Assembly (NCBI GenBank): GCA_046290465.1
Contig: JBKAGP010000001.1
Coordinates: 3,072,001 to 3,136,000 of the forward strand
Direction: 5' to 3'
DNA from: Planctomycetota bacterium
GTDB lineage: Bacteria > Planctomycetota > UBA1135 > UBA2386
Length of the DNA: 64,000 bases
Shown here in pieces: positions 6,492 to 64,000 of the stretch. The translations under genes were made by a program, and so were the position numbers. Position 1 is the first letter of the stretch; the number at the start of each line of letters is the position of its first letter. Below the pieces are notes generated by a model, which made no database searches, had not been told where the DNA came from, and saw only the letters and a program-made list of their open reading frames with translations.

Positions 6492-8048
6492 TCAGGCGAG
6501 GGCGTCGGTGGCGACGTGGTATTGGGGATCTTCGATGACGTTGACCTCGACCATGTCTCCGGCCTTGCGCAGCAGCTTGCGGCACTCGGGGCTCAGGTGG
6601 CGAAGGTGCAGGGTCTTGCCCTGCGCGAGGTAGCGCTCGGCGAGGGTGTCGATGGCCTCGATCGCAGAGTGGTCCGAGACGCGCGCGTGCTGGAAGTCGA
6701 TGACCACGTCGGCCGGATCGTCCTTGGGCGTGAACAGCTCGAGGAAGCTCTTGCACGAACCGAAGAACAGCGGCCCGCGCAGCGAGTAGATCTTGCTGCC
6801 GTCGTCGTCGGTGCTCTCGACTGCGTGCACGACCTTGGCGTGCTTCCACGCGAACACCAGCGCAGACACGACCACCCCGACCAGCACCGCGATCGCGAGG
6901 TCGGTCGCGACCGTGACGCCGCTGACCAGCACGATCACCAGCGCATCGGTCTTCGGCACCTTGTTCAGCACGCGCAGGCTCGACCACTCAAACGTGCCGA
7001 GCACGACCATGAACATCACGCCGACCAGCGCCGCGACCGGCACCATCTCGATCAGCGGCGACGCCACCACCACGAACAGCAGCAGCACGACCGCGGCGGT
7101 GATGCCGGACAGGCGGCCACGGCCACCCGAGTTGATGTTGATCATGCTCTGGCCGATCATCGCGCAGCCGCCCATGCCGCCGAACACGCCGCAGACCATG
7201 TTGGCGGCGCCCTGCGCGACGCACTCCTTGTTGCCGCGGCCACGCGTCTCGGTCAGCTCGTCGACCAGCGTCAGCGTCAGCAGCGACTCGATCAGGCCGA
7301 CCGCCGCGAGGATCACCGAGTACGGCAGCACGATGCGCAGCGTCTCGAGCGAGAACGGCACCGCCGGCAACGCGAACGCCGGCAGGCCGCCGGCCAGCGA
7401 CGCGTTTGCATCGCCGCTCATGTTGCGCAGGAAGTCGACCACGGTCGGCGTCTCGATGCCGAACAGCAGCGTCGCGCCGGTCACGCCCGCGATCGCGACC
7501 AGCGACGCCGGCACGGCCTTGGTCAGGCGCGGCACGAAGTGGATCACCGCCATCGTCACTGCGACCAGGCCGAGCATGGTGTAGAGCGGCGCGCCGCTCA
7601 TCCACTGCCGCTCGCCGTCGGCGCCGACCGCCTGGAACTGCCCCAGCTGCGCCAGGAAGATCACGATCGCCAGCCCGTTGACGAACCCGAGCATCACCGG
7701 GTGCGGCACCATGCGGATGAACTTGCCCAACCGGAACAGCCCGGCGAGCACCTGGATCACCCCCATCAGCAGCACCGCGGCGAACATGTATTGCACGCCG
7801 TGGTCCTTGACCAGCGCGACCAGCACCACGGCCAGCGCCCCGGTGGCGCCGGAGATCATCCCGGGGCGGCCGCCGAACACCGCCGTGATCAGGCCGACCA
7901 TGAACGCGGCGTGCAGGCCGACGATCGGGTCGACGTTCGCAACAAAGGCGAAGGCAACGGCTTCGGGCACCAGAGCGAGCGCGACGGTCAACCCGGACAG
8001 GAAGTCCGTGCGCAGGCTCTTGGGGGACTGGGTCAGGAGGTTGAACAC
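6492..8048 (-). CDS. SulP family inorganic anion transporter with STAS domain
   Basis: [38 protein letters not shown]-terminal GPLFFGS STAS domain. Confidence 0.95.
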
Positions 8049-57935: not shown

Positions 57936-58235
57936 TCAGTCCGTCAACGCGTCGCCGACGACCGCGACCTTGCCGGCGCGCACCCGCGCGCAGCAGAGCA
58001 GTCGGCAGTCGTCGCCGACGCCCATGCGATCGAGGGTGCCGCGCTCGTCCTCACCGGCCGGCTCGAGCGCGTCGTCGGCCGCGTCGACGCGGTGCGCGTC
58101 CGTGCCGCACATGCCGCGCGTGCAGCCGGTCATGATCTCGACGCCGGCCATCTCGGCGGCGGCGAGCAACGTGGTGCCGGGCTCCACGAACACGGTCTTG
58201 TCGGCTTCGGCGAAGTGCACCTCGACGAGGTTCAT
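57936..58235 (-). CDS. 2Fe-2S ferredoxin-like protein (C-x4-C-x2-D variant)
   Basis: GTTLLAAA..GVEIMTGCTRGMCGTD...CRLLCCARV. Confidence 0.8.
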   Translation of the reverse strand: MNLVEVHFAEADKTVFVEPGTTLLAAAEMAGVEIMTGCTRGMCGTDAHRVDAADDALEPAGEDERGTLDRMGVGDDCRLLCCARVRAGKVAVVGDALTD

Positions 58236-58317
58236 GCCCCAAGGGCTTACGGTCCGCGCCGCCGGGATCAAGCTCGGACTGGCGCAGCAGCGGCCGAGCC
58301 CCCAACATCGCGCCACC

Positions 58318-60147
58318 ATGCAGCTCGAGTTCCTCGACTGGGCGATCATCGCCGGCTACTTCGCCGTTGCCCTCGGCATCGGCGTGTTCTTCTACCGCCG
58401 CGCCGGCTCGAGCTTCGTCGAGTACTTCGCGTCGGGCCGCAGCCTGCCGTGGTGGATCGCCGGCACGTCGATGGTCGCAACCACGTTCGCGGCCGACACC
58501 CCGCTCGCGGTGACCGGCCTGATCGCCAAGCACGGCCTGGCCGGCAACTGGTTCTGGTGGGCGTGGGCGTTCGGCGGGATGTTGACCGTGTTCGTGTTCG
58601 CGCGGCTGTGGCGGCGCGCCGAGGTGCTGACCGACGTCGAACTGATCGAGCTGCGCTACTCCGGCCCCGCCGCGGCGTTCCTGCGCGGGTTCCGCGGCTT
58701 CTACATCGCGGTCGTGATGAACTCGATCGTGATCGGCTGGGTGACCAAGGCGATGGCGCAGGTGCTGCAGCAGACGGTGCTGTTCGACGAGGCGGCGACC
58801 GCGGACCCCGGCGACGGCACCGGCCTGATGCTGATCGCGATCATGCTCGCGATCACCGGCGTCTACTCGATCCTCTCCGGCCTGTGGGGCGTCGCGATCA
58901 CCGACATGATCCAGTTCGTGCTGGCGATGGGCGGCTGCATCGGCCTCGCCGTCGTCGCGATCTCGCACCTCGGCGGCGTCGACGAACTGCAGGTACAGCT
59001 CGCCAAGGTCTACGAAGGCGACGGCGATCCGCTCGCGTTCCTGCCCGACTTCGGCGAGGGCGGCGCCGCGATTCCGCTCGGCATCTTCCTGGTGCTGGTG
59101 TTGTCGCAGTGGTGGGCGACCTGGTATCCGGGCTCCGAGCCCGGCGGCGGCGGCTACATCGTGCAGCGCATGGCCTCGTGCAAGGACGAGGGCCACGCCG
59201 TCAAGGCGACGCTGTTCTTCCAGCTGGCGCACTACTGCCTGCGGCCGTGGCCGTGGATCCTGGTCGCGTTCGTCGCGATCGCGCTGCACCCGGAGCTGCG
59301 CGCCGAAGGCGCCGACGCCGGCGCCGGCTACCCGATGATGATCCGCGAACTGGCCCCCACCGGCCTGCGCGGCCTGCTGCTGGTGACGTTCGCGGCGGCG
59401 TTCATGTCGACGATCTCGACGCAGATGAACTGGGGCGCCAGCTACCTGGTCAACGACGTCTACAAGCGCTTCGTCGCGCCGGACGCCAGCGACCGACAGC
59501 TGATGGTCGCCTCGCGCATCGCCTCGGGCATCGTGCTGCTGCTCGGCGGCGGCGTCGCGTGGTGGATGCTGACCTACGGCATCTCGGTCGACCAGGCGTG
59601 GGCGTTCCTGGCGGCGCTCGGCGCCGGCGTCGGCGCGGTGTTCATCCTGCGCTGGTTCTGGTGGCGCATCAACGTCTGGAGCGAGATCACCGCGATGGTC
59701 GGCTCGCTGCTGCTGTTCGCGATCTTCACGTGGCTGCAGGCGACGCCCGACGGCGCGAGCGAGGCCCGCTGGCCGGCGCTGGCGGCGCTCGCCGACGAGT
59801 ATCGCGCGCTGATCGTCGCCAGCGGCACGCTGGTGCTGTGGCTGCTCGCCACGCTGCTGACCAGGCCGACCGAACCGGAGCACCTGACGGCCTTCTACCG
59901 CAAGGTCCGCCCCGACGGCCCCGGCTGGGGACCGATCGCGGCACGCGCGCCCGAGGTCCGGCCGGACGGCGCGCTCGGCCGCGGCGTGCTCTGCGCCGTG
60001 ATCGGCACCGCGATCGTCTGGCTGTCGCTGCCCGGCGTCGGCGCGCTGATCTTCGGCGACTACCTGCTGGGCGTCACGCTGCTCGCGGCGGCCTTGGCGT
60101 GTGGCTTCGTGCTGCTCAAGCTCGCGCCGCGCAACCTCGCGGCGTGA
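58318..60147 (+). CDS. Sodium:solute symporter family protein
   Basis: EYFASGRSLPWW, SMVATTFAADTPL, GGGGYIVQRM, AAFMSTIST. Confidence 0.92.
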   Translation: MQLEFLDWAIIAGYFAVALGIGVFFYRRAGSSFVEYFASGRSLPWWIAGTSMVATTFAADTPLAVTGLIAKHGLAGNWFWWAWAFGGMLTVFVFARLWRRAEVLTDVELIELRYSGPAAAFLRGFRGFYIAVVMNSIVIGWVTKAMAQVLQQTVLFDEAATADPGDGTGLMLIAIMLAITGVYSILSGLWGVAITDMIQFVLAMGGCIGLAVVAISHLGGVDELQVQLAKVYEGDGDPLAFLPDFGEGGAAIPLGIFLVLVLSQWWATWYPGSEPGGGGYIVQRMASCKDEGHAVKATLFFQLAHYCLRPWPWILVAFVAIALHPELRAEGADAGAGYPMMIRELAPTGLRGLLLVTFAAAFMSTISTQMNWGASYLVNDVYKRFVAPDASDRQLMVASRIASGIVLLLGGGVAWWMLTYGISVDQAWAFLAALGAGVGAVFILRWFWWRINVWSEITAMVGSLLLFAIFTWLQATPDGASEARWPALAALADEYRALIVASGTLVLWLLATLLTRPTEPEHLTAFYRKVRPDGPGWGPIAARAPEVRPDGALGRGVLCAVIGTAIVWLSLPGVGALIFGDYLLGVTLLAAALACGFVLLKLAPRNLAA

Positions 60148-61362
60148 TCACCTGCCCACAGCGGGCTTGCGGTAGCGCGTGATCGCAAACCCGATCGGCG
60201 CCGGGCCGGGGTCGTTGCCGCGCTGGTTGAAGCGGTGCGCGCCCTTCCGGGAGCCGAGCGCGACCAGCTCGAAGCGGACCAGATCGCGCTTGCGGTCGTC
60301 GTAGAGGCCCTCGCCGTACAGCTGCGCAGTGATCGACCGCTCGCCGTCGTCCATCGCCACCTCGCCCCCGTAGACGACCGTCGTCATGCCCTTCTGGCTG
60401 GGGCCGCGGCGCATCGTCAGCGAAGCCTTGCGCACGTGCTCGGCCTTCCACGTCGAGGCCTGGCCGCGCACGTTGTCGATCAGCATCTCACGCGCGAGCC
60501 TGGTCACGAACTTGGCGTCGACCGGTTGCGGCTTCGACGACTTCGCCGGCACCAGCGCGCGCCAGTCGTCGACGGCCTGCCAGTTCTCGTTCCACGCCCA
60601 CTTGGTGAACGCCATCCACCCGGCCTTCAGGTGCGTGTCCTTGTCGAACCGGCACTGCTCGCCCTCGCCGCGCGGCAGGTCGCGCGAGTGCACGCGCAGC
60701 ACGAACTCCTGGCCGTCGAGCCGCGCCGGCAGCGTCGTGACGACCTTGGGCACCGGCTCGTTGGCGTAGCCCTTGTCCTTGCGCAGCTTCTCCCAACGCT
60801 CGAGCGCGCGCTCGAGGCGCTCGACGATGTCGTCGGGGAAGCCGCTCGCGGCGAACCGTCCCTCGAGATACTCGCCGTCGGGCCCGATCATGTAGAGGCC
60901 CTGCTTGGTGCCCGGATGGTTCCAGTCGCCCTTCGGCATCGCCTCGCCGAAGCGCTTGAAGAACTGGTGCTCCGGCCGGTCCTGCACGCGCTTCAGGTTC
61001 CACTCGTCCTCCGGGTAGAGCATGTAGACCTCGTCGGCGACGGTGACGAAGTTGCGGCTCAGCTCGGCGATCTTCGGGTCGGACCAGACCAACTGTCGGC
61101 CCCGCACACCGTTGTTTCAGGTGCACCCGAGCGGGTGCCCGTTCATCGTCCAGAACAGGATCGGACGGCCGAGCCGACGCGCCTCCTGCACCGCCGGCCA
61201 CAGCGCGTTGCGCCAGCCGATCTCGCGGTAGCTCTCCTCGTGCGCGGCCGGCTGCACGAACGTCAGCCACTCGCGGAAGTTGTCGGCGTCGGGTCGCGGC
61301 GGGTCCTGCGGAGCCAGGAGCGCCAGGAAGGCCAGGCTGGTCGTCAGCATGGCCGCGATCAT
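60148..61362 (-). CDS. Exported thioredoxin-like putative selenoprotein (C-T-U motif, SelN-like active-site region); Sec at TGA 61117-61119
   Basis: ORFs 61117..61569 and 60148..61107 are in the same frame and separated by one TGA. The join reads IGWRNALWPAVQEARRLGRPILFWTMNGHPLGCT-U-NNGVRGRQLVWSDPKIAELSRNFVTVADE. Alternative start at 61350. Confidence 0.8.
61081..61102 (-). promoter_or_regulatory. Putative SECIS hairpin of the C-T-U gene
   Basis: GGGCC-GAC-[AGUUG]-GUC-U-GGUCC. The loop starts 23 nt after the UGA and has G at position 2. Confidence 0.55.
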
Positions 61363-61373
61363 AGCGGCCGCAG

Positions 61374-62249
61374 CTACTGCACGACCTCGAGCAACTCGAC
61401 ATCCAGCTGGTAGATGTCGACGCAGTAGCCGTCGATGTGGGTCTCCTTCACCGAGAGGCGGCCGACCAGCTTGATCGGCTCGAACTGGTAGTCGACGCGG
61501 CGGCCCTCGGCCATCCGGCAGCGCACGATGCCGTGCACGTCGGGCGGCGTGCCGTAGCAGCACGACCACAGCGAGCTGACCAGCAGGAACTCACGCATGT
61601 CCTCGACCTCGTCGAGCGGCAGCATGAAGCCGAGCATCAGCACCTGCAGGCCGTCGAGCGCGCGCACGGCGTCCGGTGCGCCGATGAGACCTTCGGTGTA
61701 CTTCCAGCCGCTCAGTTCGTCGAACGGCAGCACCCGGTCGACCCCGGCGATCTTGCCGTTGGCGATCATCTCCTGCAGCTTCTTCTCGGCCGCCAGCATC
61801 GCCTCCGCAGAACGCATCGCAGCGAGGTCGGCCGGATCGGTACCCTTGGGCAGTTCGCGGCCGTCGGGGTTGTTGCCGCCGGGATTGCTGCCGCCAGGAT
61901 CACCGCCGGCCGGCCGCAGCGGCCCGTCGACGCCGTTCGGCCCACCGACACCATCCGGCGCCTGCGCGACCTCGCGATCACCTGGCGGCGCATCGCCACC
62001 GGAGTCGGCGCGGTTCAGCCGCCACGCCAGCACCGTGACCCCGAGGCCGAGCAGCAGCACCGCGGCGACCAGCATCCGGTAGGCGCTGGCCGACGACCCG
62101 GTGGGCGTCGCCCGCTCCGGCCCGGCCGCGACGCGGGCCAGGATCCGCTCGGCGCGATCCGGAGGCGACGCGCGCTCGGCGAGTTCGTCGAAGGCGTGGT
62201 CGAAGTGTCGCTGCTCGACCGACTCTGGCTCGTGCTGCTGATCCGTCAT
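61374..62249 (-). CDS. Putative anti-sigma factor: cytoplasmic N-region, TM, extracytoplasmic DUF3299 domain
   Basis: ATGA-coupled to the ECF sigma gene; single TM; C-terminal LDG..V.MLGFMLPLD...EFLLV...SCCYGTPP DUF3299 signature. Confidence 0.75.
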   Translation of the reverse strand: MTDQQHEPESVEQRHFDHAFDELAERASPPDRAERILARVAAGPERATPTGSSASAYRMLVAAVLLLGLGVTVLAWRLNRADSGGDAPPGDREVAQAPDGVGGPNGVDGPLRPAGGDPGGSNPGGNNPDGRELPKGTDPADLAAMRSAEAMLAAEKKLQEMIANGKIAGVDRVLPFDELSGWKYTEGLIGAPDAVRALDGLQVLMLGFMLPLDEVEDMREFLLVSSLWSCCYGTPPDVHGIVRCRMAEGRRVDYQFEPIKLVGRLSVKETHIDGYCVDIYQLDVELLEVVQ

Positions 62250-62815
62250 GACGACTCCTGTTGCATCCTCCGCTGCACGCATTCGCGCAGCGCCTTGCGC
62301 GCGCGCGACAGCAGCGACTTGATCCCGTTGGCGCCGATGCCGAGGCGGCCGGCGACCTCGCTGCACGACGCGCCGTCGAGGTGGTGCCACTGCACCGCAT
62401 CGCGCATGCGACCGTCGAGCCGGTCTACGCAGCGCCGCAGCAGCTCGATCCGTTCGTCCTCGAGCGCGCTGGCGTCGTCCCGCAGGTATTCGTCGACCTC
62501 CTCGAGCCACTGCACGGTCGGCGGCTCGCGCCGGCTGCGGCGCCGCGCGCCGAGCAGCAGGTTGCGGGCGGTGCCGCGCAGGTAGGCGGCGACATCGACG
62601 ATGCGCTCGCCCGACAGCAGCCGTTCGGCCGCGATCACGAACGCATCCTGCATCAGGTCGTCGGCCTCGTGCGGGTCGGCGCCGAGCAGCCGCAGGTAGC
62701 GCCAGACCATGCGCTGGTGCGCCCGCACCAGGGCGGCGAAGTCGGCCATCACGCCGCTCGCGGCCGGGCCGGGCGCGGGGCGCTCGCTGCGTTCGATTGG
62801 CTGCACGGCGGGCAT
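62246..62815 (-). CDS. ECF RNA polymerase sigma factor
   Basis: Region 2 (HQRMVWRYL..ADDLMQDAF..YLRGTARN) and region 4 (LRRCVDRL..EVAGRLG..KSLLSRARKALRECV). Confidence 0.9.
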   Translation of the reverse strand: MPAVQPIERSERPAPGPAASGVMADFAALVRAHQRMVWRYLRLLGADPHEADDLMQDAFVIAAERLLSGERIVDVAAYLRGTARNLLLGARRRSRREPPTVQWLEEVDEYLRDDASALEDERIELLRRCVDRLDGRMRDAVQWHHLDGASCSEVAGRLGIGANGIKSLLSRARKALRECVQRRMQQESS

Positions 62816-62876
62816 CGTCTCCGCTGGTGCCCGCACCCGGGTCCGCGGGTGCAGGATTCTGCAGAAAAGCCGGGCG

Positions 62877-63863
62877 CTACAGGAACAGCCGGTGCTGCCG
62901 GAAGCGCTCCTGGATGCCTGCGTCGCCGTCGACGACGCGCGGCCGGATGCCGCCGCAGATCTGGATCAGGCGCTCGGCCAGCGCGCGAACGGCCAAGGAC
63001 GTCGGCGCTTCGGGCTCGGTGACGACCAGCGGCAGCTGGCCGAGGCGATGCTGCATGACCGAATCGTCGTCCGGCACCTCGCCGAGGTAGCGAAGCTCGA
63101 CCCCGACGTTCTGGTTGGCGACCTCGGTCAGCCGCTGGAACGCCATCTCGCCGCGGCCCGGCGTGCTGACGCGGTTGACGACGATCAGGAAGCGGGCGTC
63201 CTGCTTGATCTGGGCGATGCACTTGATGACCGCGTAGGCGTCGACCAGCGCCGCGATCTCGGGCTGCGTGACCAGCACGATCCAGTCCGCGCCGAGCATC
63301 GACAGCACCGTCGCCGGCGCGATGCCGGCGCCGAGGTCGAGCAGCAGCGCATCCTCCTGGCCGGCCAGCGCGCCGAGTTCGCGCGCGAACGCGGTCAGGT
63401 CCTTGTCGCTCGGGTTGGCCATGCGGCGCACGCCGGACGCACCGGGCAGCAGCCGCGGCCCGCACGGCGTCTGGATCAGCACCTGGTCGAGCGTGCACTG
63501 GCCGGCGAGCAGCTGCTGCAGGGTCAGCGTCGGCTTGACGCCGAGCAGCAGGTGGTCGCAGGCGAGGCCGAAGTCGCAGTCGACCAGCACGGTCTTGCGT
63601 TCGGCTCGGTGCAGCAGCACCGCCAGCGACGTCGCCAGGAACGACTTGCCGGTGCCGCCCTTGCCGCTGGCGATCGCGATCGAGGTGGCTTCCTCGCGGG
63701 GTGCGGGCGGGGCGCGCAGGCCTTCGAGCAGACGGCCGAACAGGCCCTTGCCGCGCGGGCCGAGCGCGGAGCCGAGCCCGCCCTTCTTGCGAGGCGCGCC
63801 GCGTCCCTTCTGGCCGTCGACCGCCGCACCGTCGGCGATCTGTCCGTTGCCCGCTCCGTCCAT
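62877..63863 (-). CDS. MinD/FlhG(FleN)-like P-loop ATPase
   Basis: Deviant Walker A SGKGGTGKS, VDCDFGLA, LLPGASG, LDLGAGI, VTQPEIAALVDAYAVIK. Confidence 0.88.
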   Translation of the reverse strand: MDGAGNGQIADGAAVDGQKGRGAPRKKGGLGSALGPRGKGLFGRLLEGLRAPPAPREEATSIAIASGKGGTGKSFLATSLAVLLHRAERKTVLVDCDFGLACDHLLLGVKPTLTLQQLLAGQCTLDQVLIQTPCGPRLLPGASGVRRMANPSDKDLTAFARELGALAGQEDALLLDLGAGIAPATVLSMLGADWIVLVTQPEIAALVDAYAVIKCIAQIKQDARFLIVVNRVSTPGRGEMAFQRLTEVANQNVGVELRYLGEVPDDDSVMQHRLGQLPLVVTEPEAPTSLAVRALAERLIQICGGIRPRVVDGDAGIQERFRQHRLFL

Positions 63864-64000
63864 GATGTATGAGAACGACCCCCCACGGGTCGGCGCGTCC
63901 GACCACGCGCTCGGCCAGTTTCGCAGATCCGCCGAAAAAGGGCAGGCCCTTTCTCGGGACCGGCGGCTATTCCGGCAGCAGTTCGCGCGCGTAGCGGATC

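Follow-up and report, generated by a model that had tools for sequence, protein, structure and literature searches.

Genes and features of the locus

The window, the whole 64,000-nucleotide stretch of DNA analysed, carries on its minus strand four co-directional genes, encoding a MinD/ParA-type ATPase, an ECF sigma factor, a protein with a transmembrane (TM) helix and a DUF3299 domain, and a selenoprotein. All features placed below lie on this strand. The layout and junctions described in an earlier note on this DNA are seen again: the ATG of the DUF3299 gene overlaps the sigma stop in an ATGA at 62249-62246, and 11 bases separate its TAG (61376-61374) from the first ATG of the selenoprotein gene (61362). 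A second ATG at 61350 leaves a gap of 23 bases and, from comparison with three congeners, is the more likely start in use. An RNA library gave a single contig, covering 63592-63846 only.

The first gene (62877..63863) encodes a P-loop ATPase with the Walker A sequence SGKGGTGKS and Pfam matches to CbiA (E 8.4e-16) and ParA (E 3.7e-14). A KGGxGK[ST] P-loop combined with a CbiA/ParA match is diagnostic of the MinD/ParA deviant Walker A family, to which we assign the protein by sequence; its scores with the NCBIfam MinD equivalog models fall below their cut-offs. The more specific assignment as FlhG (YlxH), favored in the earlier note, was rejected: the gene directly upstream in this genome encodes an FHA + trypsin protein, there is no flagellar operon or flhF context, and the best FlhF-like match (G000:C1:4602070) is 1.47 Mb away and below cut-off.

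The sigma ORF spans 62246-62836, and the start conserved among orthologues is the ATG at 62815, giving a protein of 189 amino acids (62246..62815). Pfam finds regions 2 and 4 only (Sigma70_r2, E 2.4e-11; r4_2, E 1.1e-9), and the protein passes the sigma70-ECF superfamily model TIGR02937 (74.8 bits, cut-off 42.9); on these matches the protein is classed as an ECF (group 4) sigma-70 factor. Its best NCBIfam match is TIGR02989, the Rhodopirellula/Verrucomicrobium ECF subfamily, at 106.7 bits with a cut-off of 124.55, and it is accordingly placed as a relative of that subfamily that falls outside by the curated threshold. DUF3299 is named neither in the main text of the 2021 ECF reclassification nor in the one supplement to it that was searched.

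The third gene (61374..62249) encodes a protein of three recognizable parts. Residues 1-45 (62115..62249) form a predicted cytoplasmic sigma-binding module, with AF2 helices at 8-23 and 33-41. A single TM helix follows at residues 53-82 (62004..62093), where an AF2 helix coincides with the hydrophobic stretch LVAAVLLLGLGVTVLAW. The periplasmic domain, at about residues 170-291 (61377..61742), is DUF3299, as had been proposed: PF11736 matches at E 5.8e-10 and 39.8 bits (cut-off 22), Foldseek ranks 4hsp first (E 1.4e-9), the structure of the DUF3299 protein PA4066, and a profile match to 4hsp_A has E 1.2e-8. Residues 228-236 are the motif WSCCYGTPP, the codons of Cys230-Cys231 lying at 61557-61562.

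The fourth gene (60148..61362) contains a single in-frame TGA (61117..61119), which read as Sec gives U82 in the sequence ...GHPLGCTUNNG. The product begins with a hydrophobic segment, continues with a thioredoxin-fold domain that holds C80-T81-U82 and ends in a beta-rich domain; no Pfam or NCBIfam model matches it. A family with the conserved TGA-containing frame is found in 119 of 401 genomes of the phylum, with exactly one TGA in all but nine of the matches listed (none in eight, two in one). The pattern MNGHP..TUNNGV is invariant across 25 sequences of the family, and in six homologues lacking the TGA the Sec position is occupied by Cys (two), Asp (one) or Ser (three). The genome encodes tRNA-Sec (72.8 bits), SelA (453), SelB (353.7) and SelD (352.1), all above curated cut-offs. 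Conserved TGA, Sec machinery and Cys homologues together identify the gene, at the level of sequence, as encoding a bacterial selenoprotein. The candidate SECIS region (61077..61101, 16-42 nt after the TGA) can form two alternative hairpins, with 67% and 74% of cells paired, above slid controls, and one covarying pair; an RNAalifold consensus kept three pairs, and Rfam gave no match for the region.

In the AF2 model of the selenoprotein (pLDDT 89.0, pTM 0.87) Sec lies after strand 1, at the N-terminus of helix 83-92. Residues 43-196 superpose on 3f9u_B (Z 12.5, rmsd 1.9 over 106 residues), 3ph9_B (Z 11.3), 2ju5 (Z 9.7) and 1vrs_D (Z 9.3). Together with the conserved TGA, the fold and these structural matches bear out the earlier reading of the gene as a Sec thioredoxin. 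The fold is like that of Thioredoxin_7/DsbD-gamma/DsbH/AGR-type proteins, but the motif is C-T-U rather than CxxC, with the Cys replaced in some members, and the protein has a further beta-rich domain of 200 residues without a clear match. We infer an independent, widespread and unannotated thioredoxin-fold family with a putative role as a redox enzyme. Gene callers cut it at the TGA, leaving roughly 280-330 of about 400 residues, and no curated model covers it, which matters for selenoproteome counts.

The probable anti-sigma and its DUF3299 domain

Genetic linkage, a common N-terminal module and a complex prediction support the view, also taken in the earlier note, that the TM protein behaves as the anti-sigma of the adjacent sigma factor. 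Among the best 80 of 182 matches, all ten ECF-type DUF3299 loci have a sigma gene directly upstream, at a distance of 3-65 nt. Six sigma orthologues (47-62% identity) are set apart from paralogues (at most 45%), and each is followed by a full-length homologue of the anti-sigma. A predicted complex of the sigma factor with the N-terminal region, a check that the earlier note had called for, scores 0.85 against 0.01 for the best of three controls. Of 157 solved complexes 116 attain this mark, as do two of 215 mismatched pairs; since structures of sigma/anti-sigma complexes from other families exist, the value may stem from likeness and not from binding by this particular copy. The predicted interface comprises anti-sigma residues 10-43, whose helices clamp both sigma domains; at least 88% of contacts agree between runs, and the partner pLDDT is 71.

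The protein might instead be a periplasmic or membrane member of the sigma regulon that is merely co-transcribed. Its cytoplasmic part is only about 45 residues long, Pfam finds no anti-sigma domain in the protein, and an NCBIfam anti-sigma model matches it weakly (E 2.2e-4, 21.3 bits, cut-off 100). Against this stand the predicted complex and the conservation of the sigma/anti-sigma stop/start overlaps across orthologues. The N-terminal module also recurs in the proteins encoded after all eight paralogous ECF sigma genes, where it is joined to unrelated outer domains (LRR, HEAT, beta-propeller or others). We regard simple co-transcription as very unlikely and treat the protein as an anti-sigma in what follows.

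One known class of cytoplasmic module was tried and rejected. Zinc-binding (ZAS) class I anti-sigma domains have HxxxCxxC within a four-helix N-terminal bundle some 90 residues long. Here two helices precede the TM helix, and since residues 1-82 are devoid of Cys the module has no zinc-binding HxxxCxxC.

DUF3299 is otherwise known beside transporter genes. Table 1 of PMC9817125 gives Vibrio zrgE as part of the Zur-induced zrgABCDE operon, in agreement with the earlier note's remark on ABC-transporter linkage. According to PMC9820375, ZrgE itself has no known function and its single knockout no reported phenotype. In the bacterial family of the present genome, free DUF3299 paralogues likewise adjoin ABC_tran and FtsX/MacB_PCD genes. 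The DUF3299 protein of the window is 43-47% identical to the three ABC-linked paralogues of the family, CC motif included, and they have a signal peptide where the anti-sigma has its N-terminal module. A ZrgE-type protein is recognized by a signal peptide and a gene following those of an ABC ATPase and an FtsX/MacB permease, as in the paralogues. The window copy was rejected as a member of this type: like ZrgE and PA4066 (4hsp) it has the DUF3299 family domain, the fold and the first Cys of the motif, but where they have a signal peptide it carries an anti-sigma N-terminus and a TM helix, and its gene follows a sigma gene, not a permease gene. In 4hsp only the first Cys of the CC motif is conserved. 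Because the transporter-linked paralogues share the CC motif, it is not a thiol switch specific to the sensor, and the redox role given to it in the earlier note is not supported.

Promoter motif and gene order in relatives

A promoter-like motif of ECF type, CTGCACCC-N15-GGCAC (62827..62854), ends 11 nt before the sigma ATG. It matches once in the window and not at all in 100 shuffles, and in its strict form this is the single match in the 6.59-Mb genome. A motif of this kind precedes the sigma gene in 11 of 11 orthologous cases. The variant ATGCACCC-N15-GGCAC lies 9 nt ahead of the start codon in the gene for this genome's free DUF3299 paralogue, a gene followed by one for an HD_5 protein, and is one of 20 genome-wide sites with a PWM score of at least 16. 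The motif is upstream of five of eight paralogue loci in assemblies bearing the pair and of four of 56 in others, compared with 0/8 and 2/56 on the control strand; as related genomes are kin, these and the other counts from relatives are not independent. Two paralogue loci with a strong motif (L228 and L188) are in assemblies with no detected sigma orthologue or ECF-type DUF3299, and in three pair-bearing assemblies (L178, L210 and L237) the motif is absent from the paralogue locus examined. None of 30 further motif sites sampled from five pair-bearing genomes is near a DUF3299 or HD_5 gene.

Comparison of gene order identifies the sigma and anti-sigma genes as the conserved unit; the four genes are not a conserved module. 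The earlier note had grouped them in a trans-envelope redox or metal circuit, whose exported selenoprotein would control the thiol state of the anti-sigma CC motif or be the regulated output. Such a circuit accords with the tight, co-directional spacing here and in one same-genus genome (G418), with the hydrophobic segment, thioredoxin fold and Sec position of the selenoprotein, and with the vicinal Cys of the DUF3299 domain. That Cys pair is, however, equally present in the ABC-linked paralogues, and the gene order is not kept: the selenoprotein gene adjoins the anti-sigma gene in one of ten other ECF-type loci (among the best 80 of 182 matches), none of 29 selenoprotein loci, nor of six with 7-kb flanks, carries a sigma or DUF3299 gene, and the selenoprotein neighbours differ in all six annotated loci. 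The orthologue of the ATPase gene, found in 60 of 61 genomes of the family, comes after an FHA-trypsin gene in 15 of 19 other loci but adjoins the sigma gene in one of the 19, and in five genomes holding both it lies at a separate locus from the sigma gene; from these comparisons it is a family-wide gene and a mere neighbour of the sigma module. In two congeners (L150 and L152) the order is MinD gene, selenoprotein gene, SSF gene, with no sigma pair between the first two, and in another genome (L169) an 81%-identical anti-sigma has SSF directly after it. A four-gene circuit therefore seems to us extremely improbable. Because the two congeners have the MinD-selenoprotein order without the pair, the rearrangement was probably an insertion of the pair in this lineage. 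Tight spacing alone hinted at a four-gene module; comparison with relatives points to a recent insertion.

A weaker form of the association would be that the selenoprotein gene was captured by the ECF operon here, and perhaps in G418, and stands at its distal end, induced by read-through and not part of the ancestral regulon. No terminator or terminator-like site was found between the anti-sigma and selenoprotein genes, and with a gap of 11-23 bases co-transcription is possible in this genome, whose one strict promoter match precedes this operon. Against it, the G418 gap is about 150 bases and holds no ECF motif, and all four genus members keep a -10-like hexamer at 6-7 nt from the ATG, on its upstream side: here TATGAT (61358..61363), 7 nt before the second ATG, and in the three congeners TATACT or TATGCT, in upstream sequence that is otherwise dissimilar. 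The TATGAT element was missed by a scan with the generic sigma-70 consensus; its retention in the four genus members suggests that the selenoprotein gene has its own, probably leaderless, transcript. We think capture by read-through rather unlikely, and take the sigma/anti-sigma pair alone as the unit to be interpreted.

Proposed circuit and comparison with known systems

The locus probably holds a two-gene, self-regulated ECF sigma/anti-sigma pair with a periplasmic DUF3299 domain, its neighbours being separate. The anti-sigma would hold the sigma factor by its short two-helix cytoplasmic N-terminus and cross the membrane once, presenting a ZrgE-like, OB-type DUF3299 domain to the periplasm. 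This sensor probably arose by recent duplication of the free periplasmic DUF3299 protein, whose gene in these bacteria accompanies those for a MacB-type ABC transporter and for an HD_5 protein. A signal at the domain would release the sigma factor: either the ligand that the free paralogue binds, which may be a metal, or contact with the transporter partnering that paralogue. Freed sigma would then direct transcription from CTGCACCC-N14/15-GGCAC promoters, the predicted targets in this genome being its own operon and the free DUF3299 paralogue gene, followed by the HD_5 gene. The MinD-like ATPase and selenoprotein genes would have become neighbours of the pair when it was inserted between them, and the selenoprotein gene would at most receive read-through transcription here.

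More tentatively, the anti-sigma may sense with a duplicated copy of a protein that its own sigma factor induces, in a product-feedback or transporter-status circuit. The pair would switch on the free DUF3299 protein and the adjacent HD_5 (HD-GYP-like) protein, and the tethered DUF3299 could compete with the free protein, its ligand or the MacB-type transporter that partners it, or report on one of these. Such a circuit was not found described for ECF systems in the literature searched. The defined motif and the predicted target, the free paralogue with its HD_5 protein, offer testable regulatory predictions. DUF3299/ZrgE has a solved structure and no known role, and a version wired to a sigma factor could supply a transcriptional read-out for the ligand of the domain.

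Membrane-anchored ECF sigma/anti-sigma pairs with modular sensors include RseA-RpoE, FecR-FecI and CnrY-CnrH, the last of the short 'class II' type. The present pair resembles them in that the sigma factor is limited to regions 2 and 4, the anti-sigma spans the membrane once and is translationally coupled to it, a conserved promoter motif precedes the sigma gene, and a clamp on both sigma domains is predicted. It differs from them in its sensor, which is a DUF3299 domain, and in a cytoplasmic module of only some 45 residues, in which two helices are predicted and Cys is absent.

Four-gene layout and flanks

The region 60148-63863 holds four genes, all on the minus strand. Gene 1 (62877-63863) encodes a MinD/ParA-type P-loop ATPase (Pfam CbiA, E 8.4e-16); the NCBIfam MinD models score it below their cut-offs. 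The product of gene 2 is a sigma factor of the ECF type, carrying Sigma70_r2 and r4_2 domains; it exceeds the TIGR02937 cut-off (74.8 bits; cut-off 42.9) and falls short of the one for TIGR02989 (106.7 bits; cut-off 124.55). Gene 3 (61374-62249) starts within the sigma stop codon (ATGA) and encodes a 291-residue protein whose C-terminus matches DUF3299 (E 5.8e-10; score 39.8 bits, cut-off 22). Gene 4 stays open from 61362 to 60148 provided that the TGA at 61119-61117 encodes selenocysteine (...MNGHPLGCTUNNG...), and matched no model in Pfam or NCBIfam. These gene calls, junctions and domain matches confirm the arrangement described in the earlier note: four co-directional genes, with sigma and anti-sigma overlapping at ATGA and a selenoprotein gene last.

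An FHA plus trypsin-like peptidase (FHA-trypsin) is encoded upstream of gene 1, beyond the window, and a convergent sodium:solute symporter gene, probably starting near 58282, lies downstream of gene 4. A 2Fe-2S ferredoxin-like ORF (57936-58349, minus strand; Fer2, E 1.1e-6) overlaps, in antisense orientation, the 5′ extension of that symporter's long ORF. A generic promoter and terminator scan did not call any sigma-70-type site; its one terminator-like site (63945-63961) falls beyond the genes discussed here. Among seven RNA runs one library had a small share of the region, as a single 255-base contig covering 63592-63846 only and uninformative for co-transcription.

The sigma factor and its putative anti-sigma

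Among 151 genomes of the order the sigma factor has six matches at 47-62% identity (E 1e-50 to 1e-65), paralogues lying at 45% or less, and a full-length gene 3 homologue follows the sigma gene in all six. Only one of the six, G418 from the same genus, also has the FHA-trypsin, MinD, selenoprotein and symporter genes; at the other five loci unrelated genes follow, most of them convergent. Species-representative genomes yielded 182 DUF3299 loci on scanning, and the analysis covered the best 80. Ten of these best 80 match gene 3 from residue 11 or earlier and are termed ECF-type, having the anti-sigma N-terminal module. In every one of the ten a sigma gene lies 3-65 nt ahead; the selenoprotein is present at a single one of them, the G418 locus. 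By Pfam, most of the remaining loci of the 80 are preceded by genes for an ABC ATPase and an FtsX/MacB permease and followed by an HD_5 gene. A word-based search with anti-sigma residues 1-85 returned four proteins only. With an HMM profile, 1.84 billion representatives gave 3392 DUF3299-like proteins (E up to 0.001), among which the N-terminal module occurs in at least 15 clusters at 50% identity, all named ‘hypothetical protein’ or lacking a name. The evidence supports genes 2 and 3 as a conserved ECF pair that regulates itself and has DUF3299 as its sensor.

The structural model of gene 3 has short helices at residues 8-23 and 33-41 and a transmembrane helix at 53-82, after which come a Pro/Gly-rich, disordered linker, one long helix (139-163) and the beta domain of DUF3299. 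Structurally this domain is matched best by PA4066 (4hsp, E 1.4e-9), and this match together with the Pfam score bears out its earlier assignment to DUF3299. In public DNA runs, close relatives carry 15-base insertions in the linker (window 61873-61880), which fits a length-tolerant spacer.

The N-terminal module and transmembrane helix recur in the proteins encoded directly after all eight paralogous ECF sigma genes of this genome (23-41% identity; contig G000:C1, 3955154, 4592690, 2923486, 4962645, 3216160, 4521950, 4791804 and 4795794), each a single-pass protein with stop and start overlapping. The outer domains of the eight differ: LRR, HEAT, beta-propeller (PQQ/arylsulfotransferase-like), GspD-N0-like, or none. 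Sequence comparison and modelling support gene 3 as a putative anti-sigma factor of this local modular type. Complex prediction with sigma residues 20-189 and anti-sigma residues 1-58 scored 0.85, against 0.01 for the best of three controls; 116 of 157 solved complexes attain that mark, as do 2 of 215 mismatched pairs. Contact agreement between runs was at least 88%, partner pLDDT was 71, and the predicted contacts join both sigma domains to anti-sigma residues 10-43. Since sigma/anti-sigma complexes of other families have already been solved, we read the score as likeness rather than proof of binding.

The ABC-linked DUF3299 paralogues have a signal peptide where gene 3 has its N-terminal module, and three of them from the family align to gene 3 at 43-47% identity from ‘PKGTDPADLAAMRSAEAML’ onward. 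The SLWSCCYG motif is also found in these paralogues, so the vicinal cysteines are a family trait; 4hsp retains only the first Cys of the pair.

The selenoprotein and the origin of the gene neighbourhood

The Sec machinery is encoded in the genome (tRNA-Sec, 72.8 bits against a cut-off of 47; SelA, 453.1; SelB, 353.7; SelD, 352.1). The SelD gene (G000:C1:1309619-1311945, minus strand) is read through one TGA of its own and adjoins SelA. Of 401 genomes sampled across the phylum, 119 have homologues of gene 4; among the matches listed, these contain exactly one TGA, except for eight without a stop and one with two TGA. The protein collection has the family as roughly 280-330-residue proteins, about 70-79% of the query, which corresponds to a cut at the TGA. 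Across 25 aligned sequences there is no variation at M73 N74 G75 H76 P77 or at T81 U82 N83 N84 G85 V86, and at least 90% retain C80. Six TGA-less homologues have Cys (two), Asp (one) or Ser (three) at the Sec position. The AlphaFold model (pLDDT 89.0, pTM 0.87) has a thioredoxin-fold domain at residues 43-196, best matched by 3f9u_B (Z 12.5, rmsd 1.9 over 106 residues), with further matches to AGR3 (Z 11.3), DsbH (Z 9.7) and DsbD-gamma (Z 9.3); its beta-rich C-terminal domain had no clear structural match. The machinery, conserved TGA, invariant flanks and Cys homologues uphold the proposal that the fourth gene encodes a selenoprotein.

For SECIS candidates after the TGA, RNAalifold kept three pairs, and two alternative hairpins had 67% and 74% of cells paired. 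An Rfam search of 60000-64000 (E up to 10) gave a chance sRNA match only and no SECIS family, and folding the single sequence after the TGA gave z = -0.09 against shuffles, a value that says nothing at such a G+C content. Another paralogue of the selenoprotein, the second (G000:C1:3141527-3142573, plus strand; 32% identity), also with one in-frame TGA, lies ~5.5 kb past the window end (window coordinates about 69527-70573).

A -10-like hexamer, TATGAT (61358-61363), that was not called by the generic promoter scan lies 6-7 nt before the conserved ATG, which is the second (61350); three congeners have TATACT or TATGCT at the same place, 6-7 nt before the selenoprotein ATG. The retention of this hexamer suggests that the selenoprotein gene may have its own leaderless transcript. 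No sigma, DUF3299 or MinD homologue was found beside the selenoprotein at 29 other loci (1.5-kb flanks) or at six loci (7-kb flanks), and its annotated neighbours were different in all six. These loci, with the single occurrence among ten ECF-type loci, do not support the four-gene redox or metal signalling module proposed in the earlier note; the selenoprotein is a separate, widespread, unannotated family.

Orthologues of the MinD-like gene were found in 60 of the 61 family genomes. It follows FHA-trypsin here and in 15 of 19 other loci, and by this context gene 1 encodes a MinD/ParA protein and not the FlhG-like ATPase first suggested. Within 1.5 kb of it a symporter gene was found in 10 of the 19 loci and a sigma gene in one (G418). 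The selenoprotein gene is directly downstream of MinD in two of the 19, L150 (genome G449) and L152 (G440), and in G449 the sigma pair is at another locus, flanked by unrelated genes. In five genomes with both the MinD orthologue and the sigma gene, the two are on different contigs or 100 kb apart. The closest anti-sigma relative among the best 80 of 182 loci (L169, 81% identity) has a symporter gene 29 nt after it and no selenoprotein. Most simply, the pair would have entered between the MinD and selenoprotein genes in the lineage shared by this genome and G418, though the direction is inferred.

Promoter motif, predicted target and known systems

The motif CTGC(A/C)CC(C/T)-N15-(G/C)(G/A)CAC precedes 11 of 11 sigma genes, ending 8-11 nt ahead of the ATG in otherwise unalignable sequence. 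In the window it has one match (0 of 100 shuffles), at 62827-62854, after the MinD stop and ahead of the sigma start; in its strict form it is found a single time in the whole 6.59-Mb genome. A position matrix from the 11 sites scores 16 or more at 20 sites genome-wide. One of these, ATGCACCC-N15-GGCAC, ends 9 nt before the ATG of a free DUF3299 paralogue (G000:C1:2688013, minus strand) that is followed by an HD_5 gene. The other strong sites before start codons here (SpoVG-like, MscS-like and a no-family gene) were not distinguishable from chance.

Within the best 80 of 182 loci, 64 paralogue loci could be assessed, and an upstream site scoring 11 or more was found at 5 of 8 in pair-bearing assemblies versus 4 of 56 in others (two of these four scoring 16 or more), with 0 of 8 and 2 of 56 in the opposite-strand control; the genomes being related, these counts overstate independence. 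Neither a sigma orthologue nor an ECF-type DUF3299 was found in the genomes of L228 and L188, loci with strong sites in the other assemblies, and in three pair-bearing assemblies the paralogue locus examined had no upstream motif. In five pair-bearing genomes an exact-pattern regulon search gave the same counts as its backwards-pattern control; a looser pattern gave 11-20 sites versus 5-10 in the control. The 30 of 79 looser-pattern sites that came with loci had no DUF3299 or HD_5 gene nearby. Regulation of the free DUF3299 paralogue by the sigma factor is a tentative proposal, somewhat less likely than not.

This paralogue (locus L071) has no ABC transporter genes alongside, and two tandem di-haem oxidoreductase (DHOR) genes (L071 8133-10666, plus strand) diverge from it and the HD_5 gene. 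A 10-bp palindrome, TCGTATACGA, inside CGTCGTATACGATGG, is kept 35-45 nt before free DUF3299 paralogue genes (L071 about 7990-8000; also L200, L220, L228, L188 and L178). In L071, L213 and L205 it lies immediately next to the ECF-type motif; it may be an operator or a -10 element.

The Vibrio DUF3299 member is described as ZrgE of the Zur-induced zrgABCDE operon (PMC9817125), and another paper gives its function as unknown even with a structure solved (PMC9820375). Literature naming ‘DUF3299’ yielded nothing on sigma factors, and the term is absent from one supplement of the ECF reclassification paper, whose other supplements could still list it. An ECF pair with a DUF3299 sensor gives a testable predicted target. 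Genes 2 and 3 would work like other membrane-anchored ECF sigma/anti-sigma pairs, and the short two-helix module of gene 3 presumably resembles the short anti-sigma class exemplified by CnrY.
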